A stretch of 64,000 bases of DNA, from assembly GCA_951406725.2 (NCBI GenBank), contig OX597838.1:33356001-33420000 (forward strand), read 5' to 3'. The position numbers were made by a program, and so were the translations under genes. Shown one piece after another: positions 4,401 to 36,049 of this stretch. Each line of letters opens with the position of its first letter. The first letter of the stretch is position 1. The notes under the pieces were generated by a model, which worked only from the letters and a program-made list of their open reading frames with translations, ran no database searches and was not told the DNA's origin. The stretch is from Octopus vulgaris (Eukaryota).

Positions 4401-4524
4401 AACTCTGGTATCTCCTCACCCCGAGCGGATAAATCTTTCGCCTTTTACTAAAGATTTCCGTGGGGAGGAACATTTTAATGAGTCTATAGACTTATTTTTG
4501 AAAGCCTCATCTAACCATGAGGCG
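4401..4524 (+). ncRNA. U5: U5 snRNA gene, class X flank (T10A change in stem Ib)
   Basis: ACTCTGG start; loop 1 GCCTTTTAC closed by AAATCTTT/AAAGATTT; Sm site ATTTTTG; 3' hairpin GCCTCAT/ATGAGGC. Confidence 0.96.
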
Positions 4525-4760
4525 GTAATTAAATCAACATCAGACTAATTAATATTGGGTCCATTGCGACCTCCTAACCGTTTTGCCTCGGGTTCAGTCG
4601 CACAGCGTGTCTTGTCTTCTATTGTAAACTCAATAAGTCTATCAGTGCCTTGGCCGAACTGCTAAGTTACAAAGCTGTATGCGCTTCTCCCTAACCACTA
4701 CTTTACAACCATTGTTGGTTTGTTTACACCCCGTAACTTAGCAGTTCGGCCAAGGCACTG

Positions 4761-5300
4761 ATAGACTTATTTTTGAAAGCCTCATCTAACCATGAGGCGA
4801 TAATTAAATTAACATCAGACTAATTAATATTGGGTTAATTGCGACCGCCTAACCGTTTTGCCTCGGGTTCAGTCGCACAGCTTGTCATTTATTGTACCCC
4901 AGGCTGAACAAAGCTGTATGTCCTTGTCCCTAACCACTACTTTACAACCAATGTTGGTTTGTTTACACCCCGTAACTTAGCAGTTCGGCCAAGGCACTGA
5001 TAGACTTATTTTTGAAAGCCTCATCTAACCATGAGGCGATAATTAAATTAACATCAGACTAATTAATATTGGGTTAATTGCGACCGCCTAACCGTTTTGC
5101 CTCGGGTTCAGTCGCACAGCTTGTCATTTATTGTACCCCAGGCTGAACAAAGCTGTATGTCCTTGTCCCTAACCACTACTTTACAACCAATGTTGGTTTG
5201 TTTACACCCCATAACTTAGCAGTTCGGCCAAGGCACTGATAGACTTATTTTTGAAAGCCTCATCTAACAATGAGGCGATAATTAAATTAATATCAGACTA
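4761..5300 (+). repeat. 239-bp tandem repeat: U5 3' stub (Sm site, hairpin, 3' box) plus degenerate SINE; stubs at 4761, 5000, 5239
   Basis: ATAGACTTATTTTTGAAAGCCTCATCTAAC recurs at a 239-bp period. Confidence 0.93.
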
Positions 5301-5789
5301 ATTAATTTGGATCACGAACCGGGATTCCCAGTCCCACTAACATTGTTATTATATTTCTCACGTAAACGGTATGTTCGTCTATTCGTTGTTATATTCCCCG
5401 TCACAACATTACAGCAATATTATATATTGCTTGCTGGCAAAGTGCTTAGCGGCATTTCGGTTGTCTTCATCTAAAGAAGCCATTTAATTAAACTAAAGTT
5501 AGATTAATCTCTTTGGAAAAGACATAAGCCAGTCGAATTCAGTCAACAATTTTGGGTTTGGCCGAATTAGATCTCATTTAGTGGACCCTATTAAAGTGGG
5601 ATTCGAAATTGTAATTCTGTTCCTGTAAAACTTTTCATTATAGGATATACAGTAAGAGATGATGTATTTATGATATTGATTTCTAATTTTTTGCTAGCAA
5701 TTTAGTGGGAGGAGGTAAGTCGACAATATCGATCCCAGTACTAGTGTCCCCTTCTCTCTAATGCCTTTACGGCAATTTAAAAGAAATAG

Positions 5790-7515: not shown

Positions 7516-7628
7516 AAACTAGCTTCTACTTCCATTGTGTGGGTGATAATTTAGTTTATTGGGGTGAGTGCGTTAAGCGGTGATAAATAAAAATGCGACG
7601 TTAATATCAGTTCGAATCTGCTTAAGTA

Positions 7629-8178
7629 CGAGGGTGAGTCAAAAAGTGATGCCATTTTGTTTAGGACAGGTATAATTACCATCACAGGAACATGTATCAT
7701 ACATCAAAATGAAGCTGGTCCTCTGTGGATAACATCCCTACTTCTCAACATAGTCACCGTTTCTCTCAATAGCAATGTTCCACCTTCGAATGAGAGCATG
7801 TATCCCTGCCCTGTAAAATTCTGTTGATTGTTCTTTGAGCCACTTCTTCACTACAGTTGTCACTTCCTCGTCACTGGACTATCATCTCTTCGGCCCCATG
7901 AAAGAGGGTTTGAGAGGCAAACATTATTCCAGTGACGAGGAAGTGAAAACTGTAGTGAAGAAGTGGCTCAAAGAACAGTCAACAGAATTTTATGGGGGCA
8001 GAGAGATATGCTCTCATTCGAAGGCGGAACATTGCTAATGAGAGAAACAGTGACTATGTTGAGAAGTAGGGATGTGATCCACAGAGGACCAGCTTCATTT
8101 TAATGTATGATACATGTTCCTGTGGTGGTAATTATACCTGTCCTAAACAAATTGGCATTACGTTTTGACTCACCCTCG
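7629..8178. mobile_element. Palindromic mariner-derived MITE (~250-bp inverted arms, TA TSD)
   Basis: TA|CGAGGGTGAGTCAAAA...TTTTGACTCACCCTCG|TA; centre encodes mariner C-terminus DYHLFGPMKEGLRGKHYSSDEEVK. Confidence 0.9.
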
Positions 8179-8310
8179 TATTTACAAGTCAGAACGTACT
8201 AGTGTTAACATTGCATTTTTAATTTATCGATCTCAACCTGATACGAAGTCATAATCACATATACAATACTTGACATTCTCGAACGTGGCTGTGGAGTGAG
8301 AAGCTTGCTT

Positions 8311-8868
8311 CTCCGACGCATGCGTTGGTCAGTGTCTTTTTTTTTTCTTTTGCACTGCTAGGAGTCACAACACCAACGTCGTAGGTCATTTGTTTTTTTG
8401 GAGGGATTCAGTGGGATGTTTGTTGCTCGTGTTTAATTATTTGGTCGAATAAGAAATCTCCACTGAGTCCCGGGCATTTGTCTGCCTGTAGTTGTGTTTA
8501 AAGTCTCACTTACAGGTGAGAAGTGTGTTTTGAGCGCATATCCTTCCTCCTATAATTGTGCTTATTTTTACCAATTTTTGGTGAAATTGTTTTGTGCCCT
8601 GGATTACCGAATTGGTCAGGAGTACCAGGACAGCCAGAAGAACAGTTTGCTGTGTTTTTAAACTGTTTCTTGTCTTCTTCATTCCTTCCTGCATCTTTGT
8701 TTTTTTTGAACTCTGTGAACTTTTGTTTTTCTGTAAAAAAATGGCAAAAATGAACAACACTGCGTTGGAGTGGGAGATTGTCCCACCCAAACAGTGAATG
8801 AAAGACTTTGAAGTGAAGACGGTGGTGTTAAGGACTTACTCAAAGTCACTAGACACCATCGCCCTCTT
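8311..8868 (+). mobile_element. Tx1/L1-like retrotransposon family A: 5' UTR plus ORF1 N-terminus (ATG 8741), 3'-truncated
   Basis: MAKMNNTALEWEIVPPKQ*MKDFEVKTVVLRTYSKSLDTIALF is homologous to the zinc-knuckle ORF1 at 12230; T-rich UTR. Confidence 0.65.
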
Positions 8869-9304
8869 TTTAGACTTCGAGGGACTTTGTTCGATAGCAT
8901 TCCCCACATTTTGGCAGTTCTCCTCACTACGAGACGCTCGAGGTCACCTAGGGATATTTTTCTTCTCAGTATCACCTGTCTCACAGAAATTTGTAACAGC
9001 CCGCAGGATCACTTTCGGAGAAGGTGCCTATCACTTTCCAAAATGCTGTCGGAATTTTCTTTGGGCTGCAACGATGGATCTTTGGCTGGTGAAGTATGCT
9101 TTGACCACGTATGCAATTTCTTTTGGAGTCCACAACATTATGAGGGTCACCATAATCAAATACCTGTACAAAAAATAGTAAAATCTTAGATATGTTGAAC
9201 TCCTGTATATCAGTCATGTAATGAATATATTTCGTTCTCTATGTCATTTTTTCAATCCAAGATACTAACATTTAAAATGTGCCCCGTCATTATGGCCCAT
9301 CCTG
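8867..9304 (-). mobile_element. Tc1/mariner transposon 5' fragment (DUF4817-like HTH)
   Basis: Minus strand reads WTPKEIAYVVKAYFTSQRSIVAAQRKFRQHFGK..PSPKVILRAVTNFCETG; TIR-like end CAGGATGGGCC at 9304. Confidence 0.75.
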
Positions 9305-9360
9305 CATGGCTACAGTCCAATGACTGAAACAAGTAAAACATAAAACGTGACAGATTTGCT

Positions 9361-9486
9361 ATGCCTCTGGTTTCTCCTCACCCCGAGCGGATAAATCTTT
9401 CGCCTTTTACTAAAGATTTCCGTGGGGAGGAACATTTTAATGAGTCTATAGACTTATTTTTGTAAGCCTCATCTAACCTTGAGGCT
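9361..9486 (+). ncRNA. U5: U5 snRNA copy, class Z (ATGCCTCTGG...CCTTGAGGCT), upstream promoter block lost
   Basis: Full U5 body; 5' flank switches to a SINE tail about 20 nt upstream. Confidence 0.88.
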
Positions 9487-9813
9487 GATAATTAAATTAA
9501 CATCAGACTAATTAACTTGGTTTCACAAACTACGGGTCCCTGGGCCCTCCAACACCGTGTTATCTCTAAACTTACTTTTCTGAGTTTCATCTAACTATAA
9601 AGACATTGAGATAACTGCAGGTCTCGTGTGTGTGTTACGTTTATCGCTATAAATTTTTTAACGGTTGTGATTTGGGGAAGATTTGGTTGCTATTTCTAGC
9701 AATTCAGAGACTGTCTAGAGCAGGCATCGGCAACCATTTTCGAGAAACGCTTTGATGCTTACAAAAATGTTTAAAAACGTGGTCCTGTGAGCCGAGAAAT
9801 TTTAGCAGCAGTT

Positions 9814-9850
9814 TCAAGGTCAAGGTCGATTATAAACATCACTGATAGGT
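9814..9850 (+). promoter_or_regulatory. Candidate U5 distal element (TCAAGGTCAAGGTCGATTATAAAC) at about -250
   Basis: Positionally conserved upstream of copies whose flanks have otherwise diverged (3718, 6312, 14557, 30718). Confidence 0.5.
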
Positions 9851-9973
9851 ACAAATATATCCAGTTTTATTTAGTCAAACCTTAATATTTAATGAGTAAC
9901 ACATCGAATAAAATATTTATTATAATCTACTAGTTATTTATATATAAAGATATTTAAAATTTGTTGATCATGA

Positions 9974-10012
9974 AATTAATTACCTATATTGATTTATATC
10001 TTCTAATCAGTG
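9974..10012 (+). promoter_or_regulatory. Candidate U5 proximal sequence element (ATTRATTT...TTCTAATCAGTG, about -90 to -54)
   Basis: Conserved at near-fixed distance in X, Y and Z flanks; PSE position typical of Pol II snRNA genes. Confidence 0.6.
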
Positions 10013-10065
10013 TTTGTTTAGTCAGATATTTTGTATAATATTGAATGTCAAAATGTGTGTCAGTT

Positions 10066-10189
10066 AACTCTGGTTTCTCCTCACCCCGAGCGGATAAATC
10101 TTTCGCCTTTTACTAAAGATTTCCGTGGGGAGGAACATTTTAATGAGTCTATAGACTTATTTTTGAAAGTCTCATCTAACCATGAGGCG
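10066..10189 (+). ncRNA. U5: U5 snRNA gene, class Y (C>T wobble in 3' hairpin)
   Basis: Full U5 consensus with upstream blocks and 3' box. Confidence 0.96.
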
Positions 10190-10213
10190 ATAATTAAATT
10201 AATATCAGACTAA
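10190..10213 (+). terminator. Candidate snRNA 3' box (ATAATTAAATTAAYATCAGAC), after every U5 copy and stub
   Basis: Near-invariant directly downstream while further flanks diverge; AA..A..AGA core resembles the metazoan 3' box. Confidence 0.6.
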
Positions 10214-10894
10214 TAAACAAAATAAATTCGAGGAATGGGCAGTAAATAGTACTGCCCATTTCTCGAAAAACTGTTGTATATACTGCAACGAACTCGCATT
10301 GTGCCTTTCTACAGTCGGGTTTTGTTGTAGCTCGATCGGTTGTGCCTGGGCTCAGACAAAATCTTCCTCTCACGTGTATGGATGACCTTTGCTGCTTTGG
10401 GTTAAATCAAACCGTAATATTAGACAATGGATAAATCTTGATTTGTAATTTCTCATATAAAATTATACTGAACAGAAATTATATGGTCAGCCAAACTAGC
10501 TTCAGTGGAAGCGCAATGGCCCAGTGGTTAGGGCAAGCGGACTCGTGGTTTCGATTCCCAGACTGGGCGTTGTGTGTGTTTATTGAGCGAAAACTCCGTC
10601 AAGGGGTGGTGGCGACCCCTGTTGTACTCTTTCGCCACACCTTTCTCTCACTCTTTCTTCCTGTTTCTTGAGTAACGCTGCGATGGACAGGCGTCCCGTC
10701 CAGTTGGGGGGAACACATACGCCACAGAAACCGGGCCCATGTGCCTGGCTAGGCTTGAAAAGGGCGCATAAATTAAAAAAAAAACTAGCTTCTACTTCCA
10801 TTGTGTGGGTGATAATTTAGTTTATTGGGGTGAGTTCGTTAAGCGGTGATAAATAAAAATGCGACGTTAATATCAGTTCGAATGTGCTTAAGTA

Positions 10895-11420
10895 CGAAGG
10901 TGAGTTAAAAAGCAATACCATTTTCTTTAAGACAGGTATAATTACCATCACAGGAACATTATCATACATCAAAATGAAACCGGTCCTCTGTGGATCACAT
11001 CCCTACTTCTCAACATAGTCACCATTTCTCTCAATAGCAATGTTCCACCTTCGAATGAGAGCATGTATCCCTGTCCTGTAAAATTCTGTTGACTGTTCTT
11101 CTTCACAGTTTTCACATCTTCGTCACAGGACTATCATCTCTTCGGCCCCATGAAAGAGGCAAACATTATTCTAGTGACGAGGAAGTGAAAGCGGTAGTGA
11201 AGAAGTGGCTCAAAGAACAGTCAACAGAATTTTATGGGGGCAGAGATACATGCTCTCATTCGAAGGTGGAACATTGCTATTGAGAGAAATGGTGACTATG
11301 TTGAGAAGTATGGATGTGATCCACAGAGGACCAGCTTCATTTTGATGTATGATACATGTTCCTGTGGTGGTGATTATACCTGTCCTAAACAAAATGGCAT
11401 TACTTTTTGACTCACCCTCG
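10895..11420. mobile_element. Palindromic mariner MITE, copy 2
   Basis: Same TIRs and TA TSD, same site in the unit. Confidence 0.9.
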
Positions 11421-11569
11421 TATTTACAATTCAGAACGTGATTTTAGCATATTCGAACTAGTGTTAACATTGCATTTTTAATTTTTCGATCTCAACCTGA
11501 TACGAAGTCATAATCACATATACAATACTTGACATTCTCGAACGTGGCTGTGGAGTGAGAAGCTTGCTT

Positions 11570-13227
11570 CCGCACATGCGCTGTAAGTCGGTTTCTTCCA
11601 GTTGAACTAGAGTGGACGTAGGCTTGTTAGCTCCGTCCAATTACAAGAAAAAAGAACAAAAACAGAGAAGGTTGTCGAGTCAAGTGATTTTGTTTTATCT
11701 GAGCTGGGTGTAATTTGTTATATTGTAATTTTCTGTTAACAAATTTCGCCCATCGCTGGGACAATTTCGCCTGCTCTCGGCGGCTGCTATTTTTGTATAT
11801 TGTGAATTTTTTGGATTCATTTTTTAAAAAGAAGTGGTGGGGCGTATCCTCGTCCGAATAGAACCTGTTACAGTTGCTGCTGCAGTTACCGTTGGCTGTA
11901 GCCAGTATTGTGTTTGGATTTATTGGATTTATTTTACCAATTACCGAAAAAAAAAAAGATTTATGCCAAGGACCCTATCCACATTAGGCCTGGAGTACCT
12001 GTTGGCCAGAAAATTGGATTTTTGCTGTGTGAATTGTTTTTCTATTTTTCGTCTATCTTTCCTGATTTTTTTCTTTCTTTTTGAACTGTTAATTTATTTT
12101 TTGGACTTACTTTGTTTTATTTTTTTACTGTTTCTATTAACTTTTTATGTACCTTATTTTATTATTTTTTTTTACATCCTCTTTGACCTTTGAACTTTCT
12201 TTAAACTTTTAAGACTTTCTTTTTTGCACATGGCAAAAATAAACGGTGCCGCTGCTTTGGAGTGGGAGGTGGTCCCACCCAAACAGTGGATTAAAGATCT
12301 TGAGAAGAGGACGGTGGTACTACGGACCTATTCTAGGTCGTGTGGTGCCATCGCCCTCTTCGACAAGAGCGTAATAGAGAGAGAGTTGGCAGACTACCTG
12401 CCAACTATAAAATTTATTTCACAAGGGACCAAATTTGCAACGGTGTGGTTGCTGTTTGGTACCCCCGAGGAAGCTGGCAGATTCCCTTGAGGGAAAAGAA
12501 ATTTTGTTCCTCCCCACTTATTGTGGGAGAAATATATGAAGAGCCTGGGTGTGCGGGCTGCCCCCGGGCACGGAGGCGGAATGGATCGAGAGGACCATCC
12601 GGCGAGGCCTGGGGGATAGCGGGCCCAGGCTATTGAGTGTGGGGATTGCTCCCGCGGTCGACTGGGAGGGGTCAAGGGCAACTTTGACCCTGTGGACCCC
12701 GGTGGCCGTGGGAGACATGATGCTTCCGGATTTCCTAAAAATGGCTGGGTACAGGTGCCCGGTGATATTTGAGGGATGCCCCCCCCCCAAGTGTCACCTG
12801 TGCCTGGAGCCTGGCCATATCGAGGGGAACTGTCCAGGGGGCCGTGGTAGGGCCCTAGAGCATGAGAAAGAGAAGGTACCCGCCGCCCCCTCATTGGAGG
12901 GGGAGACGGTGGAAGTGTGGAGGAAGTTGCCTCCACGAAAAGAAAAAGAAAGGTGAGTAACAATGGTTGCTCACCAAAGAATGTTCAGGCGGCGGAGGAG
13001 GGTAGCGACCCCCTGCGTCTGTCGACGCAGCCCCCTGCTCCCGCAGCCTCAAAAAGAAAGCGGAAAAAGAGGAGCAGAGGACGGTCGGCGGATGTTCCTG
13101 GGCCGCCGACGGAGCCGCAGGTGGGATGTGTGCCACCTGCCGATGGGGCTCCGCCAGTGGGAAGTGTGCCACTGATGGAGCAGTGTGAGGTCCCTTCCTT
13201 TGAAGAGGAAGTGTTTGTCCTCCTTTA

Positions 13228-13228
<1 letters not shown>
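11570..13228 (+). mobile_element. Tx1/L1-like retrotransposon family B: 5' UTR plus frameshifted ORF1 (ATG 12230) with CCHC zinc knuckle; no ORF2
   Basis: VIFEGCPPPKCHLCLEPGHIEGNC (CX2CX4HX4C at 12792-12833) followed by a basic/Pro-rich region; GC-rich ORF after a T-rich UTR. Confidence 0.75.
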
Positions 13229-13289
<61 letters not shown>

Positions 13290-13639
13290 ACACACACACA
13301 CACACATGCTTCTTTCAGCATCCATCGACTAAATCCACTCAGAAATCTCTGGACTGTCCGTGGTTACACTTGAAGACACTCGTCAAAGGTGCCATGCCGT
13401 GAATGAAAACCCAAAACTCTATGCTTGCGAGACAAAATTCCTACAACACGGCTGAGCTTGCAGTTTGTCCGAAACTAACAATTTCCCCTCACAGAAGTGT
13501 TGTCAGGAGAAGGATTTCTGAGAGTAATCCGTAATTCTTAAAGGCTGAAAGTTCCCTGTAATATCAAAGATAGCAGATCTTCTCCATGTTGGCAACTGGG
13601 ATACAACAAAATTCTATCAAAGGTACTAAAGATTTCCTT

Positions 13640-14017
13640 ATTTCTTTATTGCCCATAAGGGGCTAAACATAGAGGAGGACAAACAAGGACAGACAAAGGG
13701 ATTAAGTCGATTACATCGACACAGTGCGTAACTGGTACTTAATTTATCGACCCCGAAAGGATGAAAGGCAAAGTCGACCTCGGCGGAATTTGAACTCAGA
13801 ACGTAGCGACAGACGAAATACGGCTACGCATTTCGCCCGGCGTGCTAACGTTTCTGCCAGCTCGCCGCCGTATTAATAACTGGTACTTATTTAATCGACC
13901 CCGAAAGGATGAAAGGCAAAGTCGACCTCGGCGGAATTTGAACTCAGAACGTAACGGCAGACGAAATACTGCTAAGCATTTCGCCCGGCGTGCTAACGAT
14001 TCTGCCAGCTTGCCGCC
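13640..14017 (-). mobile_element. Dimeric family-2 SINE inserted at the U5 pseudogene 5' junction
   Basis: Two tandem heads; flanked by a ~21-bp duplication AAAGRTACTAAAGATTTCCTT. Confidence 0.85.
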
Positions 14018-14028
14018 TTAACTAAAGA

Positions 14029-14107
14029 TACTAAAGATTTCCTTGGGGAGGAACATTTTTAATGAGTCTATAGACTTATTTTTGTAAGCCCCTTCTAACT
14101 TGAGGCT
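14029..14107 (+). pseudogene. 5'-truncated U5 pseudogene (starts inside loop 1), Z-type 3' end
   Basis: TACTAAAGATTTCCTTGGGGAGGAAC...TTTTTGTAAGCCCCTTCTAACTTGAGGCT; hairpin disrupted. Confidence 0.88.
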
Positions 14108-14808
14108 GATAATTAAATTAACATCGGATTTTCGAAGACCTACAGGTGTCGTTAGCTGTTCCTCATCTTTTCAACTTGAAAGTAGTGATGGTTACTGTAA
14201 CTTTCACACCCGAGATTAGACAAATTTCGAAGGAGGTCGTGCTTATATCTATTCTATCTCCACTCCCAGCCATGACCTCTAGGTGATTGGATTATTTTAC
14301 GATGGAAGCCCGATTTGAACTCGTAACACTGTGTTTACAAATTGTCTTTCTTCAAATTTGTGGAATCATATTATTTGGTGAGTCTATACTCCCCTTTTTA
14401 AAAATGTTTGATTGTGATTTGAGAAAGATTTGGTTCCTATTTCTAGCAATTGAGCGACGGCCTAGAGCAGGCATCCGCAACTCTTTTCGAGGAAACGCAT
14501 TAATGTTTGCAAAAAAAAAGTGGTCCTATGAGCCGAGAAATTTTAGCAGCAGTTTCAAGGTGAAGGTCGATTATAAACGTCACTGATAGGTATAAATATA
14601 TCCAGTGTTATTTAATTAAAATCTAAATAATTGATTGATTATAATACATGAAAGAAAATGTTTATTATAATTCTACTAATTATTTATATATAACATATTC
14701 AAAATTTTCTTATCATAGAATTAATTATCTACATTAATTTACATTTTCTAATCAGTGTTTGTTTATTTAGATATTTTGCATAATAACAGGCGTGAAAGGT
14801 ATGCCGTT

Positions 14809-14932
14809 AACTCTGGTTTCTCCTCACCCCGAGCGGATAAATCTTTCGCCTTTTACTAAAGATTTCCGTGGGGAGGAACATTTTAATGAGTCTATAGACT
14901 TATTTTTGAAAGCCTCATCTAACCATGAGGCG
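14809..14932 (+). ncRNA. U5: U5 snRNA gene, class X
   Basis: Full U5 consensus with upstream blocks and 3' box. Confidence 0.96.
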
Positions 14933-15133
14933 ATAATTAAATTAACATCAGACTAATTAATATTGAGTCAATTGTGACCTCTTAACCATTTTACCTCGGG
15001 TTCAGTCCCACAACGTGTCTTCTATTGTGACTTCAGGCTGAACAAAGCTGTATGTGCTTGTCCCTAACCACTACTTTACAACAAATGTTGATTTGTTTAC
15101 ACCCCGTAACTTAGCAGTTCGGCCAAGGCACTG

Positions 15134-15172
15134 ATAGATTTATTTTTGAAAGCCTCATCTAACCATGAGGCG
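15134..15172 (+). pseudogene. U5 3' stub
   Basis: Only Sm site, hairpin and 3' box. Confidence 0.85.
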
Positions 15173-15381
15173 GTAATTAAATTAACATCAGACTAATAAA
15201 CAAAATAGACTCGAGGAATGGGCAGTAAATAGTACTTCCCATTTCTCGAAAAACTTGTATATACTGCAACCAACTCGCATTGAGCCTTCCTACAGTCGGG
15301 TTTTGTTGTAGCTCGATCGGTGGTGCCTGGGCTCAGACTAAAACTTTCTCTCACGTGTATGGATGACTTTTACTGTAAGTA

Positions 15382-15918
15382 CGAGGGTGAGTCAAAAAGT
15401 AATGCTCTATTGTTTAGGACAGGTATAATTACCAACACAGGAACATGTATAATACATCAAAATGAAGCCGGTCCTCTGTGGATCACATCCCTACTTCTCA
15501 ACATAGTCACCGTTTCTCTCAATAGCAATGTCCCACCTTCGAATGAGAGCATGTATTCCTACCCCGTAAAATTCCGTTGACTGTTCTTTGAGCCACTTTT
15601 TCACTTCCTCTTCACTGGACTATCGTCTCTTCGGCCCCATGAAAGAGGGTTTGAGAGGCAAACATTATTCTAGCGACGAGGAAGTGAAAGCGGTAGTGAA
15701 GAGGTGGCTCAAAGAACAGTCAACAGAATTTTATGGGGCAGGGATACATGCTCTCATTCGAAGGTGGAACATTGCTATTGAGAGAAACAGTGACTATGTT
15801 GAGTAGTAGGGATGTGATCCACAGAGGACCGGCTTCATTTTGATGTATGATACACATTCCTGTGTTGGTGATTATACCAGTCCTAAACAAACTGGCATTA
15901 CTTTTTGACTCACCCTCG
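15382..15918. mobile_element. Palindromic mariner MITE, copy 3
   Basis: TIRs and TA TSD; ORF 15588-15806 matches the mariner C-terminus. Confidence 0.9.
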
Positions 15919-16067
15919 TATTTACAAGTCAGAACGTGCTTTTAGCATATTCGAACTAGTGTTAACATTGCATTTTTAATTTATCGATCTCAACCTGATA
16001 CGAAGTCATAATCACATATACAATACTTGACATTCTCGGACGTGGCTGTGGAGTGAGAAGCTTGCTT

Positions 16068-16624
16068 CTCCGCGCATGCGTTGGTCAGTGTCTTTTTTTT
16101 TTTCTTTTGCACTGCTAGGAGTCACAACACCAACGTCGTAGGTCATTTGTTTTTTTGGAGGGATTCAGTGGGATGTTTGTTGCTCGTGTTTAATTATTTG
16201 GTCGAATAAGAAATCTCCACTGAGTCCCGGGCATTTGTCTGCCTGTAGTTGTGTTTAAAGTCTCACTTACAGGTGAGAAGTGTGTTTTGAGCGCATATCC
16301 TTCCTCCTATAATTGTGCTTATTTTTACCAATTTTTGGTGAAATTGTTTTGTGCCCTGGATTACCGAATTGGTCAGGGGTACCAGGACAGCCAGAAGAAT
16401 AGTTTGCTGTGTTTTTAAACTGTTTCTTGTCTTCTTCATTCCTTCCTGCATCTTTGTTTTTTTGAACTCTGTGAACTTTTGTTTTTCTGTAAAAAAATGG
16501 CAAAAATGAACAACACTGCGTTGGAGTGGGAGATTGTCCCACCCAAACAGTGGATGAAAGACTTTGAAGTGAAGACGGTGGTGTTAAGGACTTACTCAAA
16601 GTAACTAGACACCATCGCCCTCTT
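16068..16624 (+). mobile_element. Tx1/L1-like family A 5' fragment, copy 2 (ATG 16497)
   Basis: Near-identical to 8311-8868. Confidence 0.65.
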
Positions 16625-17060
16625 TTTAGACTTCGAGGGACTTTGTTCGATAGCATTCCCCACATTTTGGCAGTTCTCCTCACTACGAGACGCTCGAGGT
16701 CACCTAGGGATATTTTTCTTCTCAGTATCACCTGTCACACAGAAATTTGTAACAGCCCGCAGGATCACTTTCGGAGAAGGTGCCTATCACTTTCCAAAAT
16801 GCTGTCGGAATTTTCTTTGGGCTGCAACGATGGATCTTTGGCTGGTGAAGTATGCTTTGACCACGTATGCAATTTCTTTTGGAGTCCACAACATTATGAG
16901 GGTCACCATAATCAAATACCTGTACAAAAAATAGTAAAATCTTAGATATGTTGAACTCCTGTATATCAGTCATGTAATGAATATATTTCGTTCTCTATGT
17001 CATTTTTTCAATCCAAGATACTAACATTTAAAATGTGCCCCGTCATTATGGCCCATCCTG
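16623..17060 (-). mobile_element. Tc1/mariner 5' fragment, copy 2
   Basis: Near-identical to 8867-9304. Confidence 0.75.
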
Positions 17061-17116
17061 CATGGCTACAGTCCAATGACTGAAACAAGTAAAACATAAA
17101 ACGTGACAGATTTGCT

Positions 17117-17242
17117 ATGCCTCTGGTTTCTCCTCACCCCGAGCGGATAAATCTTTCGCCTTTTACTAAAGATTTCCGTTGGGAGGAACATTTTAATGAG
17201 TCTATAGACTTATTTTTGTAAGCCTCATCTAACCTTGAGGCT
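17117..17242 (+). ncRNA. U5: U5 snRNA copy, class Z, promoterless, G>T breaks a stem Ib pair
   Basis: Full body; CCGTTGGGAGG variant. Confidence 0.85.
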
Positions 17243-17821
17243 GATAATTAAATTAACATCAGACTAATTAACTTGGTTTCACAAACTACGGGTCCCTGGG
17301 CCCTCCAACACCGTGTTATCTCTAAACTTACTTTTCTGAGTTTCATCTAACTATAAAGACATTGAGATAACTGCAGGTCTCGTGTGTGTGTTACGTTTAT
17401 CGCTATAAATTTTTTAACGGTTGTGATTTGGGGAAGATTTCGTTGCTATTTCTAGCAATTCAGAGACTGTCTAGAGCAGGCATCGGCAACCATTTTCGAG
17501 AAACGCTTTGATGCTTACAAAAATGTTTAAAAACGTGGTCTTGTGAGCCGAGAAATTTTAGCAGCAGTTTCAAGGTCAAGGTCGATTATAAACATCACTG
17601 ATAGGTACAAATATATCCAGTTTTATTTAGTCAAACCTTAATATTTAATGAGTAACACATCGAATAAAATATTTATTATAATCTACTAGTTATTTATATA
17701 TAAAGATATTTAAAATTTGTTGATCATGAAATTAATTACCTATATTGATTTATATCTTCTAATCAGTGTTTGTTTAGTCAGATATTTTGTATAATATTGA
17801 ATGTCAAAATGTGTGTCAGTT

Positions 17822-17945
17822 AACTCTGGTTTCTCCTCACCCCGAGCGGATAAATCTTTCGCCTTTTACTAAAGATTTCCGTGGGGAGGAACATTTTAAT
17901 GAGTCTATAGACTTATTTTTGAAAGTCTCATCTAACCATGAGGCG
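17822..17945 (+). ncRNA. U5: U5 snRNA gene, class Y
   Basis: Same sequence as the 10066 copy. Confidence 0.96.
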
Positions 17946-18650
17946 ATAATTAAATTAATATCAGACTAATAAACAAAATAAATTCGAGGAATGGGCAGTA
18001 AATAGTACTTCCCATTTCTCGAAAAACTGTTGTATATACTGCAACGAACTCGCATTGTGCCTTTCTACAGTCGGGTTTTGTTGTTGCTCGATCGGTTGTG
18101 CCTGGGCTCAGACAAAATCTTCCTCTCACGTGTACGGATGACCTTTGCTGCTTTGGGTTAAATCAAACCGTAATATTAGACAATGGATAAATCTTGATTT
18201 GTAATTTCTCATATAAAATTATACTGAACAGAAATTATATGGTCAGCCAAACTAGCTTCAGTGGAAGCGCAATGGCCCAGTGGTTAGGGCAAGCGGACTC
18301 GTGGTTTCGATTCCCAGACTGGGCGTTGTGTGTGTTTATTGAGCGAAAACTCCGTCAAGGGTGGTGGCGACCCCTGTTGTACTCTTTCGCCACACCTTTC
18401 TCTCACTCTTTCTTCCTGTTTCTTGAGTAACGCCGCGATGGACAGGCGTCCCGTCCAGTTGGGGGGGAACACATACGCCACAGAAACCGGGCCCATGAGC
18501 CTGGCTAGGCTTGAAAAGGGCGCATAAATTTTTAAAAAAACTAGCTTCTACTTCCATTGTGTGGGTGATAATTTAGTTTATTGGGGTGAGTTCGTTAAGC
18601 GGTGATAAATAAAAATGCGACGTTAATATCAGTTCGAATGTGCTTAAGTA

Positions 18651-19173
18651 CGAAGGTGAGTTAAAAAGCAATACCATTTTCTTTAAGACAGGTATAATTA
18701 CCATCACAGGAACATTATCATACATCAAAATGAAACCTCTGTGGATCACATCCCTACTTCTCAACATAGTCACCATTTCTCTCAATAGCAATGTTCCACC
18801 TTCGAATGAGAGCATGTATCCCTGTCCCGTAAAATTCTGTTGACTGTTCTTCTTCACAGTTTTCACTTCTTCGTCACTGGACTATCATCTCTTCGGCCCC
18901 ATGAAAAAGAGGCAAACATTATTCTAGTGACGAGGAAGTGAAAGCGGTAGTGAAGAAGTGGCTCAAAGAACAGTCAACAGAATTTTATGGGGGCAGAGAT
19001 ACATGCTCTCATTCGAAGGTGGAACATTGCTATTGAGAGAAATGGTGACTATGTTGAGAAGTATGGATGTGATCCACAGAGGACCAGCTTCATTTTGATG
19101 TATGATACATGTTCCTGTGGTGGTGATTATACCTGTCCTAAACAAAATGGCATTACTTTTTGACTCACCCTCG
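18651..19173. mobile_element. Palindromic mariner MITE, copy 4
   Basis: TIRs and TA TSD. Confidence 0.9.
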
Positions 19174-19322
19174 TATTTACAATTCAGAACGTGATTTTAG
19201 CATATTCGAACTAGTGTTAACATTGCATTTTTAATTTTTCGATCTCAACCTGATACGAAGTCATAATCACATATACAATACTTGACATTCTCGAACGTGG
19301 CTGTGGAGTGAGAAGCTTGCTT

Positions 19323-20984
19323 TCCGCACATGCGCTGTAAGTCGGTTTCTTCCAGTTGAACTAGAGTGGACGTAGGCTTGTTAGCTCCGTCCAATTACAA
19401 GAAAAAAAGAACAAAAACAGAGAAGGTTGTCGAGTCAAGTGATTTTGTTTTATCTGAGCTGGGTGTAATTTGTTATATTGTAATTTTCTGTTAACAAATT
19501 TCGCCCATCGCTGGGACAATTTCGCCTGCTCTCGGCGACTGCTATTTTTATATATTGTGAATTTTTTGGATTCATTTTTTAAAAAGAAGTGGTGGGGCGT
19601 ATCCTCGCCCGAATAGAACCTGTTACAGTTGCTGTTGCAGTTACCGTTGGCTGTAGCCAGTATTGTGTTTGGATTTATTGGATTTATTTTACCAATTACC
19701 GAAAAAAAAAAAGATTTATGCCAAGGACCCTATCCACATTAGGCCTGGAGTACCTGTTGGCCAGAAAATTGGATTTTTGCTGTGTGAATTGTTTTTCTAT
19801 TTTTCGTCTATCTTTCCTGATTTTTTTCTTTCTTTTTGAACTGTTAATTTATTTTTTGGACTTACTTTGTTTTATTTTTTTACTGTTTCTATTAACTTTT
19901 TATGTACCTTATTTTATTATTTTTTTTTTTTACATCCTCTTTGACCTTTGAACTTTCTTTAAACTTTTAAGACTTTCTTTTTTGCACATGGCAAAAATAA
20001 ACGGTGCCGCTGCTTTGGAGTGGGAGGTGGTCCCACCCAAACAGTGGATTAAAGATCTTGAGAAGAGGACGGTGGTACTACGGACCTATTCTAGGTCGTG
20101 TGGTGCCATCGCCCTCTTCGACAAGAGCGTAATAGAGAGAGAGTTGGCAGACTACCTGCCAACTATAAAATTTATTTCACAAGGGACCAAATTTGCAACG
20201 GTGTGGTTGCTGTTTGGTACCCCCGAGAAGCTGGCAGATTCCCTTGAGGGAAAAGAAATTTTGTTCCTCCCCACTTATTGTGGGAGAAAGATATGAAGAG
20301 CCTGGGTGTGCGGGCTGCCCCCGGGCACGGAGGCGGAATGGATCGAGAGGACCATCCGGCGAGGCCTGGGGGATAGCGGGCCCAGGCTATTGAGTGTGGG
20401 GATTGCTCCCGCGGTCGACTGGGAGGGGTCAAGGGCAACTTTGACCCTGTGGACCCCGGTGGCCGTGGGAGACATGATGTTTCCGGATTTCCTAAAAATG
20501 GCTGGGTACAGGTGCCCGGTGATATTTGAGGGATGCCCCCCCCCCAAGTGTCACCTGTGCCTGGAGCCTGGCCATATCGAGGGGAACTGTCCAGGGGGCC
20601 GTGGTAGGGCCCTAGAGCATGAGAAAGAGAAGGTACCCGCCGCCCCCTCATTGGAGGGGGAGACGGTGGAAGTGTGGAGGAAGTTGCCTCCACGAAAAGA
20701 AAAAGAAAGGTGAGTAACAATGGTTGCTCACCAAAGAATGTTCAGGCGGCGGAGGAGGGTAGCGACCCCCTGCGTCTGTCGACGCAGCCCCCTGCTCCCG
20801 CAGCCTCAAAAAGAAAGCGGAAAAAGAGGAGCAGAGGACGGTCGGCGGATGTTCCTGGGTCGCCGACGGAACCGCAGGTGGGATGTGTGCCACCTGTGGA
20901 TGGGGCTCCGCCAGTGGGAAGTGTGCCACTGACGGAGCAGTGTGAGGGCCCTTCCTGTGAAGAGGAGGTGTTTGTCCTCCTTTA

Positions 20985-20986
<2 letters not shown>
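19323..20986 (+). mobile_element. Tx1/L1-like family B 5' UTR plus ORF1, copy 2 (ATG 19988)
   Basis: Near-identical to 11570-13228; same CCHC knuckle. Confidence 0.75.
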
Positions 20987-21055
<69 letters not shown>

Positions 21056-21386
21056 CTTCTTTCAGCATCCATCGACTAAATCCACTCAGAAATCTCTGGA
21101 CTGTCCGTGGTTACACTTGAAGACACTCGTCGAAGGTGCCATGCCGTGAATGAAAACCCAAAACTCTATGCTTGCGAGACAAAATTCCTACAACACGGCT
21201 GAGCTTGCAGTTTGTCCGAAACTAACAATTTCCCCTCACAGAAGTGTTGTCAGGAGAAGGATTTCTGAGAGTAATCCGTAATTCTTAAAGGCTGAAAGTT
21301 CCCTGTAATATCAAAGATAGCAGATCTTCTCCATGTTGGCAACTGGGATACAACAAAATTCTATCAAAGGTACTAAAGATTTCCTT

Positions 21387-21765
21387 ATTTCTTTATTGCC
21401 CATAAGGGGCTAAACATAGAGGAGGACAAACAAGGACAGACAAAGGGATTAAGTCGATTACATCGACCACAGTGCGTAACTGGTACTTAATTTATCGACC
21501 CCGAAAGGATGAAAGGCAACGTCGACCTCGGCGGAATTTGAACTCAGAACGTAACGGCAGACGAAATACTGCTAAGCATTTCGCCCGGCGTGCTAACGAT
21601 TCTGCCAGCTCGCCGCCGTATTAATAACTGGTACTTATTTAATCGACCCCGAAAGGATGAAAGGCAAAGTCGACCTCGGCGGAATTTGAACTCAGAACGT
21701 AACGGCAGACGAAATACTGCTAAGCATTTCACCCGGCGTGCTAACGATTCTGCCAGCTTGCCGCC
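21387..21765 (-). mobile_element. Dimeric family-2 SINE, copy 2
   Basis: As 13640-14017. Confidence 0.85.
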
Positions 21766-21776
21766 TTAACTAAAGA

Positions 21777-21855
21777 TACTAAAGATTTCCTTGGGGAGGA
21801 ACATTTTTAATGAGTCTATAGACTTATTTTTGTAAGCCCCTTCTAACTTGAGGCT
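21777..21855 (+). pseudogene. 5'-truncated U5 pseudogene, copy 2
   Basis: As 14029. Confidence 0.88.
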
Positions 21856-22567
21856 GATAATTAAATTAACATCGGATTTTCGAAGACCTACAGTTGTCGT
21901 TAGCTGTTCCTCATCTTTTCAACTTGAAAGTAGTGATGGTTACTGTAACTTTCACACCCGAGATTAGACAAATTTCGGAGGAGGTCGTGCTTATATCTAT
22001 TCTATCTCCACTCCCAGCCATGACCTCTAGGTGATTGGATTATTTTACGATGGAAGCCCGATTTGAACTCGTAACACTGTGTTTACAAATTGTCTTTCTT
22101 CAAATTTGTGGAATCATATTATTTGGTGAGTCTATACTCCCCTTTTTAAAAATGTTTGATTGTGATTTGAGAAAGATTTGGTTCCTATTTCTAGCAATTG
22201 AGCGACGGCCTAGAGCAGGCATCCGCAACTCTTTTCGAGGAAACGCATTGATGTTTGCAAAAAAAAAAAAAAAAAAAATGGTCCTGTGAGCCGAGAAATT
22301 TTAGCAGCAGTTTCAAGGTGAAGGTCGATTATAAACGTCACTGATAGGTATAAATATATCCAGTTTTATTTAATTAAAATCTAATTAATTGATTGATTAT
22401 AATACATGGAAGAAAATATTTATTATAATTCTACTAATTATTTATATATAACATATTCAAAATTTTCTTATCATAGAATTAATTATCTACATTAATTTAC
22501 ATTTTCTAATCAGTGTTTGTTTATTTAGATATTTTGTATAATAACAGGCGTGACAGGTATGCCAGTT

Positions 22568-22691
22568 AACTCTGGTTTCTCCTCACTCCGAGCGGATAAA
22601 TCTTTCGCCTTTTACTAAAGATTTCCGTGGGGAGGAACATTTTAATGAGTCTATAGACTTATTTTTGAAAGCCTCATCTAACCATGAGGCG
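22568..22691 (+). ncRNA. U5: U5 snRNA gene, class X (C>T in internal loop 2)
   Basis: Full consensus, CACTCCGAG variant. Confidence 0.95.
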
Positions 22692-23389
22692 ATAATTAAA
22701 TTAATATCAGACTAATAAACAAAATAAATTCGAGGAATGGGCAGTAAATAGTACTACCCATTTCTCGAAAAACTTGTATATACTGCAACGAACTCGGACT
22801 GTGCCTTTCTACAGTCGAGTTTTGTTGTAGCTCGATCGGTTGTGCCTGGGCTCAGACTAAATCTTCCTCTCACGTGTATGGATGACCTTTGCTGCTTTGG
22901 GTTAAATCAAACCGTAATATTAGACAATGGATAAATCTTGATTTGTAATTTCTCATATAAAATTATACTGAACAGAAATTATATGGTCAGCCAAACTAGC
23001 TTCAGTGGAGGCACAAGGGCAAGCGGACTCGCGGTTTCGATTCCCAGACTGGGCGCTGTGTGTGTTTATTGAGCGAAAACACCTAAAGCTCCGGCAAGGA
23101 GTGGTGGCGACCCCTGCTGTACTCTTTCGCCCCAACTTTTTCTGACTCTCTCTTCCTGTTTCTTGAGTAACGCTGCGATGGACAGGTGTCCCGTCCAGTT
23201 AAGGGGGAACACATACGCCACAGAAACCGGGCCCATGAGCCTGGCTAGGCTTGAAAAGGGCGCATAAATAAATAAAAACCTAGCTTCTACTTCCATTGTG
23301 TGGGTGATAATTTAGCTTATTGGGGTGAGTGCGTTAAGCGGTGATAAATAAAAATGCGACGTTAATATCAGTTCGAATCTGCTTAAGTA

Positions 23390-23990
23390 CGAAGGTGAGT
23401 CAAAAAGTAATGCCATTTTGTTTAGGACAGGTATAATTACCATCACAGGAACATGTGTCATACATCAAAATGAAGCCGGTCCTCTGTGGATCACATCCCT
23501 AATTCTCAACATAGTCACCGTTTCTCTCAATAGCAATGTTCCACCTTCGAATGAGAACATGTATCCCTACCCCGTAAAATTCCGTTGACTGTTCTTTGAG
23601 CCACTTCTTCACAGTTTTCACTTCCTCGTCACTGGACTATCATCTCTTCGGCCCCATGAAAGAGGGTTTGAGAGGCAAACATTATTCCAGTGACGAGGAA
23701 GTGAAAACGGTAGAGAAGAAGTGTCTCAAAGAACAGTCAACAGATTTTTATGGGGCAGAGATACATGTTCTCATTCGAAGGTGGAACATTGCTATTCGAC
23801 AAGAGCGTAATAGAGAGAGAGTTGGCAGACTACCTGCCAACTATAAAATTTATTTCACGAGGGACCAAATTTGCAATGGTGTGGTTGCTGTTTGGTACCC
23901 CCGAGGAAGATGGCAGATTCCCTTGAGGGAAAAGAAATTTTGTTCCTCCCCACTTATTGTGGGAGAAAGATATGAAGAGCCTGGGTGTGC
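23390..23990 (+). mobile_element. Deletion chimera: truncated mariner MITE (23390-23796) fused to a family-B ORF1 fragment
   Basis: GCTATT|CGACAAGAGCG and GGGTGTGC|TAACGATTC junctions. Confidence 0.85.
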
Positions 23991-26055: not shown

Positions 26056-26172
26056 TATTTACAAGTCAGAACGTGCTTTTAGCGTGTTCGAACTAGTGTT
26101 AACATTGCATTTTTAATTTATCGATCTCAACCTGATACGAAGATATATAATAACAGACGTGACAGATTTGCT

Positions 26173-27345: not shown

Positions 27346-28410
27346 TCAGGTTTTGTTGTAGAATGGCAAGTTAAACGAACATATTGATATGGAGGTCAGT
27401 TCAGAAAATAAGAGTGCTCGTAGCCTGGTTGTGGCAGTTGGCGTCAGGCAGACGGCTAAAGCTTTTGTTCTGCCAATTTCTGGAAAGATTAACGAGTTTC
27501 GAAGAGACCTCTGCCCTTTTCCGGTCAAAGAAGGGTCGAGGAACCACCCCTTTAAAATGCGGGAGCTGTGAGTTTGTTGGACAGTCGGGAACAGAGCGAG
27601 TTGGTAACAGGTAGTTCTGCCGGAGACAGTGAATGTGAAAGACATACGCAGAGGACGGTCAGCCAGGAAGGTGGCGAAGGCGAAGGCAGCTACATCGTTG
27701 AGAGAGACAGACCGGGAATGTGAGGGATGACAAGCGAGAGGAAGACAGGCAGATAGGATTAAGAAGAGCTGGGAGAGATTACGGCGAGAGGGCATGGCTG
27801 TTCGTAGCGGGAGTTTGTAAACGAAGAAATGTAACGGTATGTGTTGTTTATGTTTTGATGTGAATTGTGTTAAAAAGAGTTGTTAAAGGAAAGAACTGAG
27901 TTGTGTTAAAGAAAAGAATTGTTGAACTAAAAAAAGAGAATTGATGTGGAAAAAAGAGAAAGAAGGAAAGAGGAAAAAGAAATGAAATTGTAAAGACATT
28001 GTGAATTAAGGAAAAGAGTTGTTGAAATGTAAAAGAAAAAAGAAAGAGAAAGACTTTAATGTGATTTGAACATTAAACTGTATCGTGAATTGAACTGATT
28101 TGTTTCTGAACTGTATATTGTACCTGCTTGCTTTGATCTTGTTAATTTTGTTGCATGTTATTTTCTTTGATGTATTTGATGTTGTAATGATTGTCATAAA
28201 CTGTTGTTAAACGTAAGCCAATTGCCTTCCGCCGTTTCTCTCTGTATCTCTTCCTGCTGTTGTTGTTGTTCTCTCCGTTCGCCGGTTGCCGGGTTCGCTG
28301 CCACCCCACCCCCACCGGGTCCTCTCTTTCCGTCAAGCCGGTCAATCGTCGTCGCTCGACTTGGTAGGGTCCCGGGTTTCCGAAGAGTTTGAGCGACGGC
28401 AGGTTCGTAA
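27346..28410 (-). other. Unclassified insertion, probably a retroelement 5' end (GC-rich leader, biased UTR, 149-aa ORF 27795-27346)
   Basis: Breaks the U5 spacer at GGTTTTGTTGTAG; composition differs from the flanks; no recognisable domain. Confidence 0.35.
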
Positions 28411-28693
28411 CAATATATTAAATGCACAGGCGAACGGAAAACAGGCACAGAAGGTCCTTAATTCCTTATCAGTTATCGACCAGGGGGTATGCCACAATTT
28501 TGTACCTTTAACGATAAGATTGATTCCAAGCTTTAACGATAAGATTGATTTCCAAGAGTTGCAGAAAATATTGGACCGAAAACAAACAAACAATATATGG
28601 ATAACAAGCGATGAAGAAGTGGGCATACGAAAATGAATAAATGTAATTCAAGACGGCGGACGAAGGACAAAGATGAAATAAATAAGCAAATAA

Positions 28694-29103
28694 GGCGCAG
28701 GAGTGGCTGTGTGGTAAGTAGCTTGCTAACCAGCCACATGGTTCCGGGTTCAGTCCCACTGCGTGGCATCTTGGGCAAGTGTCTTCTGCTATAGCCCCGG
28801 GCCGACCAGTGCCTTGTGAGTGGATTTGGTAGACGGAAACTGAAAGAAGCCTGTCGTATATATGTATATATATATATGTGTGTGTATGTGTGTGTGTTTA
28901 TGTGTGTCTGTGTTTGTCCCCCTAGCATTGCTTGACAACCGATGCTGGTGTGTTTACGTCCCCGTTACTTAGCGGTTCGGCAAAAGAGACCGATGGAATA
29001 AGTACTGGGCTTACAAAGAATAAGTCCCGGGGTCGATTTGCTCGACTAAAGGCGGTGCTCCAGCATGGCCGCAGTCAAATGACTGAAACAAGTAAAAGAG
29101 TAA
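28694..29103 (+). mobile_element. Family-1 SINE, full length
   Basis: GGCGCAGGAGTGGCTGTGTGGTAAG...GAAACAAGTAAAAGAG. Confidence 0.9.
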
Positions 29104-30955: not shown

Positions 30956-31081
30956 ATGCCTCTGGTTTCTCCTCATCCCGAGCGGATAAATCTTTCGCCT
31001 TTTACTAAAGATTTCCGTGGGGAGGAACATTTTAATGAGTCTATAGACTTATTTTTGAAAGCCTCATCTAACCTTGAGGCT
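30956..31081 (+). ncRNA. U5: U5 snRNA gene, class Z with intact upstream blocks
   Basis: Full body; ATTAATTT..TAATCAGT block upstream; C>T makes a U-G wobble. Confidence 0.93.
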
Positions 31082-31207
31082 GATAATTAAATTAACATCA
31101 GACTAATTAACTTGGTTTCACAAAATACGGGTCCCTGGGCCCTCCAACATTGTGTTGTCTATAAACTTATTTTTCTAAGTTTCATCTAACCATAAAGACA
31201 TTAAGAT

Positions 31208-35447: not shown

Positions 35448-36049
35448 ATGATTTATTATTATTATTATCATTGGAATATTTTAATTCAAATCACTTTGAA
35501 ATAGGATGTTCAAATCATAGAACCAGAGGCGGTTTCAGGCAGATTGGTACCAAAACGGTTAAGCAACCCATAAGCTTGCTTCCCTACCACATTATTCCGG
35601 GTTCACTCTTACAGCGTGGTACCTTGGACAAGTGTCTTCTGCTTGTCTATAGCCCTGGGGCGACCAGCGCTTTGTGAGTGGATGAATTTGACGGCGGAAA
35701 CTGAAAAAAGCCTGTCGTGTATGTATATATATATATAAATATACACACACACGTGTGTGTGTGTGAGTGTCTTTGTATTTGTCCCTCACCACTGCTTGAC
35801 AGCCAGTGTTGGTCTGTTTACGTCCGTGTGCTGCAAGAGGAAAGAGTACAGCAGAAGTTCGCCATTACCTTCTGGCGGAGCCGCGTGGAGCTTAGGTGTT
35901 TCGCTCATAGACACACACATCGCCCGGTCTGAGATTCGAACCGGCGAGTCCACTGCTCTAACCACTAGGCCATGTGCCTCCACATGCCCTTAAGTAACGA
36001 CAGTGAAATAATCTTTGAATCTATGTAACGAAAACCTAAATCACGGACG

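Follow-up and report, generated by a model that had tools for sequence, protein, structure and literature searches.

LINEs that insert into specific sequences have been described with rRNA, snRNA, and tRNA genes, microsatellites, and other transposons as their targets. Families of the Tx1 clade target transposons, U2 genes, and microsatellites (PMC4494074), families related to NeSL target tRNA genes (PMC4640811), and the Dada transposons strike the anticodon region (PMC8869645). We compared such systems with two LINE-like elements, A and B, located in a U5 snRNA gene array of Octopus vulgaris. The window, i.e., the whole stretch of DNA analyzed, is 64 kb long and contains 13 U5 genes.

Tx1-Mar (crocodilians) and Tx1L (Xenopus) resemble A and B in that an abundant, harmless repeat is the landing site and related families occur at one site (PMC4494074); their targets, however, are DNA transposons or LTR elements documented by many copies and RT trees, whereas A and B offer a SINE head and two junctions, without an RT. 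Like Keno (U2), Mutsu (5S rRNA), and Dewa (tRNA-Leu spacer) (PMC3706591, PMC4640811), A and B are found in a small-RNA gene array; unlike those of the three families, their junction lies in a decayed spacer SINE, with no U5 sequence on its 5' side. A tRNA-type target would be shared with NeSL-1_TV, LIN15_SM, and LIN25_SM (PMC4640811) and with Dada-tA, -tL, -tV, and -tD, which insert around the anticodon (PMC8869645), but the endonuclease of the NeSL-related families is restriction-like, and the Dada elements, which are DNA transposons, insert in antisense, while A and B are in sense to the head and have a type I ORF1. A LINE is classed as target specific when >20% of its copies are flanked by one repeat type (PMC4494074); here, both of the two distinct junctions are at the SINE head, and both are in one array. 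In the open-access literature searched, we found no LINE family described as targeting a SINE head. If real, such a target would be a new variation on the known Tx1 targeting of transposons and small-RNA genes.

Elements A and B in a duplicated part of the U5 array

A and B occur in four units, all on the forward strand. A1 (8311..8868) comprises a 5' motif, a 5' untranslated region (UTR) of ~430 bp, and ORF1 from an ATG at 8741 over its first ~43 codons, with one stop; its duplicate, A2 (16068..16624; ATG at 16497), has one stop at a different codon. B1 (11570..13228) comprises a 5' motif, a 5' UTR of 660 bp, and ORF1 from 12230 with a stop and frameshifts, and B2 (19323..20985; ORF1 from 19988) is its duplicate. 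A and B both break off inside ORF1 or directly behind it, and no ORF2 survives. The 64-kb window yielded no RT or endonuclease belonging to either element, and no 3' end or target-site duplication of either is left in its units. A is truncated by the 5' part of a Tc1-like DNA transposon (DUF4817 HTH; E 4e-14) on the reverse strand at 8869..9303 (duplicate, 16625-17059), and B ends at an old antisense piece of a family-1-like SINE (13242..13401, reverse strand), which is 76% identical to positions 61-221 of the reference SINE.

A family-1 SINE tail (9300..9345, forward strand; duplicate, 17056-17101) lies behind the A unit on the same strand as the head in front of A, begins at SINE position 363, ends ~17 bp before a variant U5 gene, and is 83 to 92% identical to other copies. 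The sequence-only reading had let the SINE resume here, at ~9305, after the insertion of A. This did not hold: the head stops at SINE position 32, while the tail (9300-9338) corresponds to positions 363-401, and where 330 bp of SINE are missing, only 558 bp of A and the antisense Tc1-like piece intervene. The idea that the tail is the target site's 3' half was rejected, with the 330 bp absent and the Tc1-like piece in between.

The four units turned out to derive from a single 7.75-kb duplication of a block containing one A unit and one B unit, the two copies of which (7623..14960 and 15376..22719, both forward) are 97.8% identical across 7376 columns. A1 and A2 are 99.3% identical, B1 and B2 are 99.2% identical, and the breakpoints are the same in both copies. 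Because of this duplication, the number of distinct junctions is two. Between the A and B units, divergence was 2.6% in the upstream flank versus 14.6% in the downstream segments, which marks them as mosaics. The units also contain several microhomology deletions, with joints of 2, 4, and ~8 bp inside the A and B elements; a third, doubly deleted unit retains an internal fragment of B (23797..23990, forward; 97.5% identical to 12356-12554) without the 5' junction and has joints with 2- and 4-bp microhomology. A palindromic remnant, presumably mariner-like, was present in the upstream flank (7602..8186; inverted self-matches of 80 to 85%); a Pfam search of frames related to it matched nothing.

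A U5-type gene lies 3' of both kinds of unit. A variant-type gene (9362..9486, forward; Rfam RF00020, 90.4 bits) stands downstream of the A unit, another U5 gene (10065..10189, forward; RF00020) is upstream of the B unit, and a third (14808..14932, forward; RF00020) closes the B unit. This arrangement would suit a lineage whose target is the U5 array as such, be it gene or spacer; the SINE head would be incidental, and the junction would be shared through targeting of the spacer or through exchange at a later time. No other reading explains two sister families in the same 30-kb array; U5 snRNA appears among the Tx1 targets in the Fig. 3 legend of PMC4494074, and Dewa, in the tRNA-Leu spacer, is a precedent (PMC3706591). 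We nevertheless consider it improbable: the 5' flank is spacer and SINE head rather than U5, the nearest U5 gene upstream of the junctions is ~1.4 to 1.6 kb off, and a spacer made of decayed repeats is unlikely to have been a stable target.

The junctions and the SINE head

As the sequence-only reading had stated, the same 26-mer is found at 8285, 11544, 16042, and 19297 and is followed by either A (8311 and 16068) or B (11570 and 19323). Its likeness to a SINE head was borne out as well, since the 14 sites in the window with ≤7 mismatches are the 4 junctions and 10 family-1 SINE heads. The 26 bp correspond to SINE positions 7-32 and occupy 8285..8310 before A1, 11544..11569 before B1, 16042..16067 before A2, and 19297..19322 before B2, all on the forward strand. 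Immediately 5' of the head is an array-specific spacer (8198..8284, forward; also at 11457, 15955, and 19210, with a shortened copy at 26092); its identification as a known RNA gene was rejected, all four Rfam matches being at chance level. A comparison of A1 with B1 over the 113 positions of spacer and head showed a single difference, and none in the last 84 bp; the head is identical in the A and B units at 26/26 positions, and the spacer before it is likewise shared.

The closest single SINE copies match the junction 26-mer at 22/26 positions. The last 10 bases of the head match the SINE copy at 35572 exactly, and the differences from the common form are further upstream. Counted back from the B-box-like motif, the end of the head would fall at tRNA position 33, in the anticodon loop; neither ARAGORN nor Rfam called a tRNA in the head, which gave no stable cloverleaf. 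The 64 kb contain 16 other head-bearing family-1 SINE copies with box-like motifs, judged by the A/B box consensus, and neither A nor B was found in any of them (0/16). The density of heads here is ~1 per 4 kb.

The first 6 SINE bases are absent from the junction head, which also shows differences of its own, as might be expected if the 26 bp were an integral 5' head of both families; some crocodilian Tx1-Mar families have U1/U2 heads (PMC4494074). We judge this quite improbable, because the SINE copies at 2691 and 57124 also begin at position 7, and because identity at 26/26 positions in families with a pS of 0.5, with the spacer shared too, just shifts the same-site problem 26 bp upstream. 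Tx1-2_Crp is a LINE with an integral small-RNA head; in the case of A and B, the two kinds of unit also share the sequence in front of the head.

The junction positions of A and B agree to within 2 nt, and both elements start with a shared motif of 14 bp (14 to 16 bp). The motif was rejected as a decayed continuation of the SINE (shuffle P of 0.10 to 0.61). Since it is not such a continuation and since it differs more between A and B than the flank does (3/16 versus 1/113; p 0.006), it is part of the elements. A and B are already unlike in the first 1 to 2 bases after the head and at one inner base of the motif; A1/A2 and B1/B2 each carry an indel difference in this region.

Relationship of A and B and type of ORF1

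The two elements represent the 5' parts of LINE-like families that are sisters, with purifying selection on ORF1 (pS, 0.50; pN, 0.13; dN/dS, 0.17; Fisher p 8e-5). Over the aligned codons, the ORF1 N termini are identical at 31/41 amino acids, close to the earlier hand count of 31/43. The UTRs, said before to be unalignable past the first motif, do align in a 189-column block preceding ORF1, with a score of 75.5; two rounds of 200 shuffles each reached no more than 57 and 52, respectively. The 5' UTR homology spans ~180 bp, and the first 240 to 350 bp of the UTR are without alignment.

If a single ancestral insertion had been copied along with its unit and had decayed on the spot into A and B, with conversion maintaining the similarity of the flank, no coincidence of sites would be needed, and downstream segments 14.6% apart would agree with it. 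Such decay is very improbable and largely refuted by the strongly synonymous character of the differences; besides, the ORF1 of B has only one stop in 241 codons, and the start of the UTR cannot be aligned.

The ORF1 of B1, which follows the 5' UTR, has two RRM-like domains, a CCHC knuckle of the pattern CX2CX4HX4C, and a low-complexity tail, and RRM domain(s) plus a CCHC knuckle after the 5' UTR define a type I ORF1. Two RRM-like domains and a knuckle are common to the A/B ORF1 family, type I ORF1p, and ZCCHC3-like proteins; a ZCCHC3-like Atlas row at 0.90 gives no more than a hint, and nothing joining ZCCHC3, ORF1, and Tx1 was found in the open-access literature. ORF1 is 62% identical to Octopus sinensis LOC115225585. 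The O. sinensis relative was modeled with a pLDDT of 80.9, and the top PDB matches listed for the model were proteins with tandem RRMs, at E about 1e-5 and a low global TM (0.21 to 0.28). The zf-CCHC domain was detected at E ≤0.01 in 12 of the 31 proteins scanned, the O. sinensis protein P0002 not among them, and Pfam gave nothing below E 0.009 on the window's own ORF1 pieces. A type I ORF1 (RRM/zf-CCHC) is also reported for plant L1 and Jockey-superfamily elements (PMC5203782) and does not fix the clade; the Tx1/L1 label of A and B, taken from ORF1, is putative. A curated name for the A/B family was not found, longer ORF1-ORF2 fusion proteins were absent among 7998 candidates, and the ORF1-like proteins searched against the window matched nothing outside the A/B units. 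The reverse-strand ORF 27349-27798, a candidate third family member, found no support (hhalign E 0.16, one tblastn match at E 0.015, and no Atlas match).

Origin of the shared junction

We favor, with a probability of about 0.5, two independent insertions by a LINE lineage targeting the SINE head, on the basis of two distinct cases, which a local recombination swap could explain nearly as well. From the two-insertion proposal of the sequence-only reading, the separate, once-active sister lineages and their common start at the SINE head were upheld; its own alternative, replacement via the shared 5' motif, is somewhat less likely. Each family would have landed independently in an old SINE head, at an identical base, through an endonuclease that may prefer the tRNA-like anticodon region. 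The 5' motif would be the true 5' end of each element, and a presumed ORF2, an APE-RT protein of the Tx1 type, would have nicked the SINE near the anticodon loop, with target-primed reverse transcription in the SINE's orientation. A SINE copy residing in an ancestral, already multiplied U5 unit could have supplied the paralogous targets. Later, both 3' parts were lost, and the block with A and B was duplicated.

The preference for two insertions comes from the same junction being present in lineages at a pS of 0.50 and a pN of 0.13, though their spacer and head hardly differ. Also in favor are the exact match of the last 10 head bases to the SINE copy at 35572, the same-strand SINE tail after the A unit, and the precedents cited above. 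The small offsets between A and B would also fit separate 5' joints, since a crossover inside the motif should leave A's bases before it; this argument is weakened because the motif region is itself mutable, as the indels show. Because heads are so frequent here, SINE targeting leaves the presence of both families in this array unexplained, and both junctions lie in one rearranged, mosaic, deletion-rich array. Further points against it are the 16 other heads in the window that are free of A and B and the lack of matches to the ORF1-like proteins outside the A/B units.

Pairing of the LINE 5' end (cDNA end) with an older copy is a known mechanism. Without any targeting, A could have entered the SINE head by chance and B could have inserted at a different place in the array, oriented like A, after which deletion, unequal crossover, or cDNA-end pairing via the motif would have moved A's upstream flank onto B. 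We regard this swap as somewhat unlikely. The motif is homologous sequence exactly at the boundary, the contrast between upstream and downstream divergence implies that the units recombined, microhomology joints occur in these very elements, and, given one head per 4 kb, A and B would come to lie together no less readily than under SINE targeting. Still, with A and B differing from their first bases, a swap needs resolution at the motif edge or two further mutations in 7 bp, and deletion of B's 3' part could also yield the downstream mosaic. If it took place, the locus would be an unremarkable product of rearrangement in an snRNA array undergoing decay.

Returning to two insertions, we tentatively suggest that an octopus LINE lineage of two or more, perhaps as many as four, families (A and B, the O. 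sinensis protein P0002, and a fragment in P0010) may have switched to the abundant tRNA-derived SINE as a landing pad, cutting the anticodon loop, perhaps from a tRNA-gene-targeting ancestor. SINE heads would then add a new class of targets, and the lineage would show in nature how an endonuclease can shift from tRNA genes to the SINEs that resemble them.

Searches for related loci gave 595 pattern matches in metagenome contigs and 160 in GTDB genomes, none of them confirmed. The junction pattern had 0 matches in the metagenome contigs, and the junction-crossing reading frame yielded no candidate as a protein query. With the searched collections being mostly microbial, neither these blanks nor the one for ORF1-ORF2 fusions count as evidence. 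Of 24 sequencing runs that contain part of B, the 20 listed included no RNA run and none with half of B's words; 9 runs of 4 organisms contained 24 to 49% of these words.

Heads and starts at the A and B junctions

Both families of LINE-like 5' fragments, A (starting at 8311 and 16068) and B (11570 and 19323), are preceded by one and the same 26-mer, as the sequence-only reading had it. The assignment of this 26-mer to a SINE head was upheld: with up to 7 mismatches allowed it has 14 sites in the window, namely the 4 junctions plus 10 heads that all come from a single dispersed SINE family. Among individual SINE copies the closest agree with it at 22/26 positions, and the 10 bases adjoining the junction match one SINE copy exactly. 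It is what is left of an old SINE head clipped at its 5' end, covering positions 7-32 of the reference copy (28697). By standard tRNA numbering counted back from the B-box-like motif, its last base would be tRNA position 33, which adjoins the anticodon equivalent on the 5' side. Neither ARAGORN nor Rfam called a tRNA on the head, which folded no better than shuffles (z -0.35); tRNA-derived SINEs are recorded in octopus (Ohshima and Okada 1994, as cited in PMC4758252). That the head is instead an integral part of both elements is quite improbable.

The A and B sequences differ already in the bases that directly follow the head, as would be expected of separate 5' joints. Because the shared first motif differs between A and B at 3/16 positions versus 1/113 in the flank (p 0.006) and showed no likeness to the SINE when compared with it, its 14 bp belong to the elements rather than to the flank.

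Structure and kinship of A and B

In B a 660-bp leader precedes a frame of ~270 codons that is interrupted by one stop and by frameshifts; A has a 430-bp leader followed by ~43 codons. The UTRs, described earlier as unalignable past the first motif, contain a homologous block of 189 columns before ORF1 (score 75.5 versus shuffle maxima of 57 and 52). The likeness of about 70% between the ORF1 N-termini held, with its count corrected from 31/43 to 31/41 aligned amino acids. Over these 41 codons only, pS was 0.50, pN 0.13 and dN/dS 0.17 (p 8e-5), a signal of the sister lineages that A and B are; it led us to reject decay of one insertion in place into both, which is extremely improbable.

The closest protein, and the only close relative found, was an Octopus sinensis gene model (P0002, LOC115225585; 62% identity). 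Its predicted structure (27-row alignment, pLDDT 80.9) resembles tandem-RRM proteins with a low global TM, and Atlas rows gave, as a lead only, CCHC and ZCCHC3-like clusters at 0.90-0.92. A profile search with the element protein returned 68 proteins at E<=0.001; Pfam zf-CCHC was matched at E<=0.01 in 12 of 31 scanned, and not in P0002. The ORF1 of A and B follows the type I plan, consistent with Tx1 without fixing the clade, since this plan is reported for plant L1 and Jockey-superfamily elements too (PMC5203782). No ORF2 of A or B was found in the window, and two RT frames from elsewhere in it match nothing near them.

The other profile-search proteins, P0003-P0069, are ORF1-like members of an unnamed family with two RRM-like domains and a knuckle; P0042, P0043 and P0062 have in common an extra conserved C-terminal domain without a Pfam match. 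The ORF1 homology of A stops (8868) at the nucleotide where a B piece in the third unit restarts (23797; B position 12360/12361), and the similar N-terminus of P0010 likewise loses its match near that codon; the coincidence may be due to chance or to a fragile site. At 27360-28696 (-) a single-copy element stands head-to-head with the full SINE at 28697; its leader is T-rich, its frame spans 150-178 aa, and it resembles the ORF1 class weakly and without statistical significance. An RT-bearing LINE fragment (31179-32376, +; RVT_1 E 1e-17), which we take to be CR1/L2-like by resemblance, closely follows the variant U5 gene that starts at 30957.

Duplicated units and the origin of the junctions

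The window holds 13 U5 snRNA genes (4400-33101), mixed with SINEs and microsatellites. All four claimed junction positions stood, but not as independent cases: the stretches 7623-14960 and 15376-22719 share 97.8% identity across 7376 columns, the A and B pairs are each >99% identical, and since the block was duplicated with shared breakpoints there are two distinct junctions. The sole B remnant of a third unit is an internal piece (23797-23990), and a deletion at 26142 removed the head from a fourth.

No 3' junction or target-site duplication could be read for A or B in the window. The A fragment stops at 8868, where it is truncated by a DUF4817 Tc1-like transposon, present as its 5' part in antisense. 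Contrary to what had been proposed, the SINE does not resume after A: the tail beyond the Tc1-like piece comprises positions 363-401, so that 330 bp are missing. Where B terminates there are a CA repeat and, in antisense, an old SINE.

We put at roughly one in two the probability that A and B inserted independently by SINE-head targeting, in which two lineages would each have entered the tRNA-like site separately, in the SINE's orientation. In favor of this, half of the synonymous sites have changed between A and B, yet both start in that orientation within 2 nt of each other. Against it, both distinct junctions lie in one array, and of the other SINE copies with a head, 16 in the window, none carries A or B; at one head per 4 kb, the array offers no more targets than any 30 kb, so SINE targeting does not explain the co-location. 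Targeting of the array or of U5 itself is improbable. Because the units are mosaic (2.6% difference upstream versus 14.6% downstream) and contain deletion joints with short microhomology, a swap by recombination through the 14-bp motif, without targeting, is a serious rival, though somewhat unlikely overall; the motif region is also unstable even between recent duplicates. No dispersed A or B copies were found in the mostly microbial sequence collections searched.

We consider the observation of the shared junction site real but thin; at best, A and B would behave like target-specific LINEs. Described Tx1-type targets include Tx1D for Tx1, Mariner-N4_AMi for Tx1-Mar and U2 for Keno (PMC4494074), with Dewa and Mutsu as further target-specific precedents (PMC3706591); NeSL-related families include tRNA-specific ones (PMC4640811), Dada is reported to insert at the anticodon (PMC8869645), and L1-Tx1 is listed as an expanded family in coleoids (PMC8967140). 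If SINE-head targeting were confirmed, the head would be a new target variant among such LINEs.

Other features of the array

A second variant of the U5 gene, distinct in both its 5' and its 3' sequence, occurs at 9362, 17118, 26174 and 30957, and in the A units the SINE tail stands in place of its upstream promoter region. Tandem ~240-bp units at 4486-5310 combine a U5 3' end with a decayed SINE piece. A family-2 SINE pair (13624-14044), with a 16-bp direct repeat on both sides, lies within a 5'-truncated U5-like copy, a remnant joined near loop I to an unassigned 168-bp piece (13455-13622). A palindromic remnant at 7602-8186, presumably mariner-like, has paralogues at 10848, 15374, 18604 and 25473; it differs between units by 5.7-6.9% versus 1-3% for the adjoining flank, possibly through conversion between its arms.
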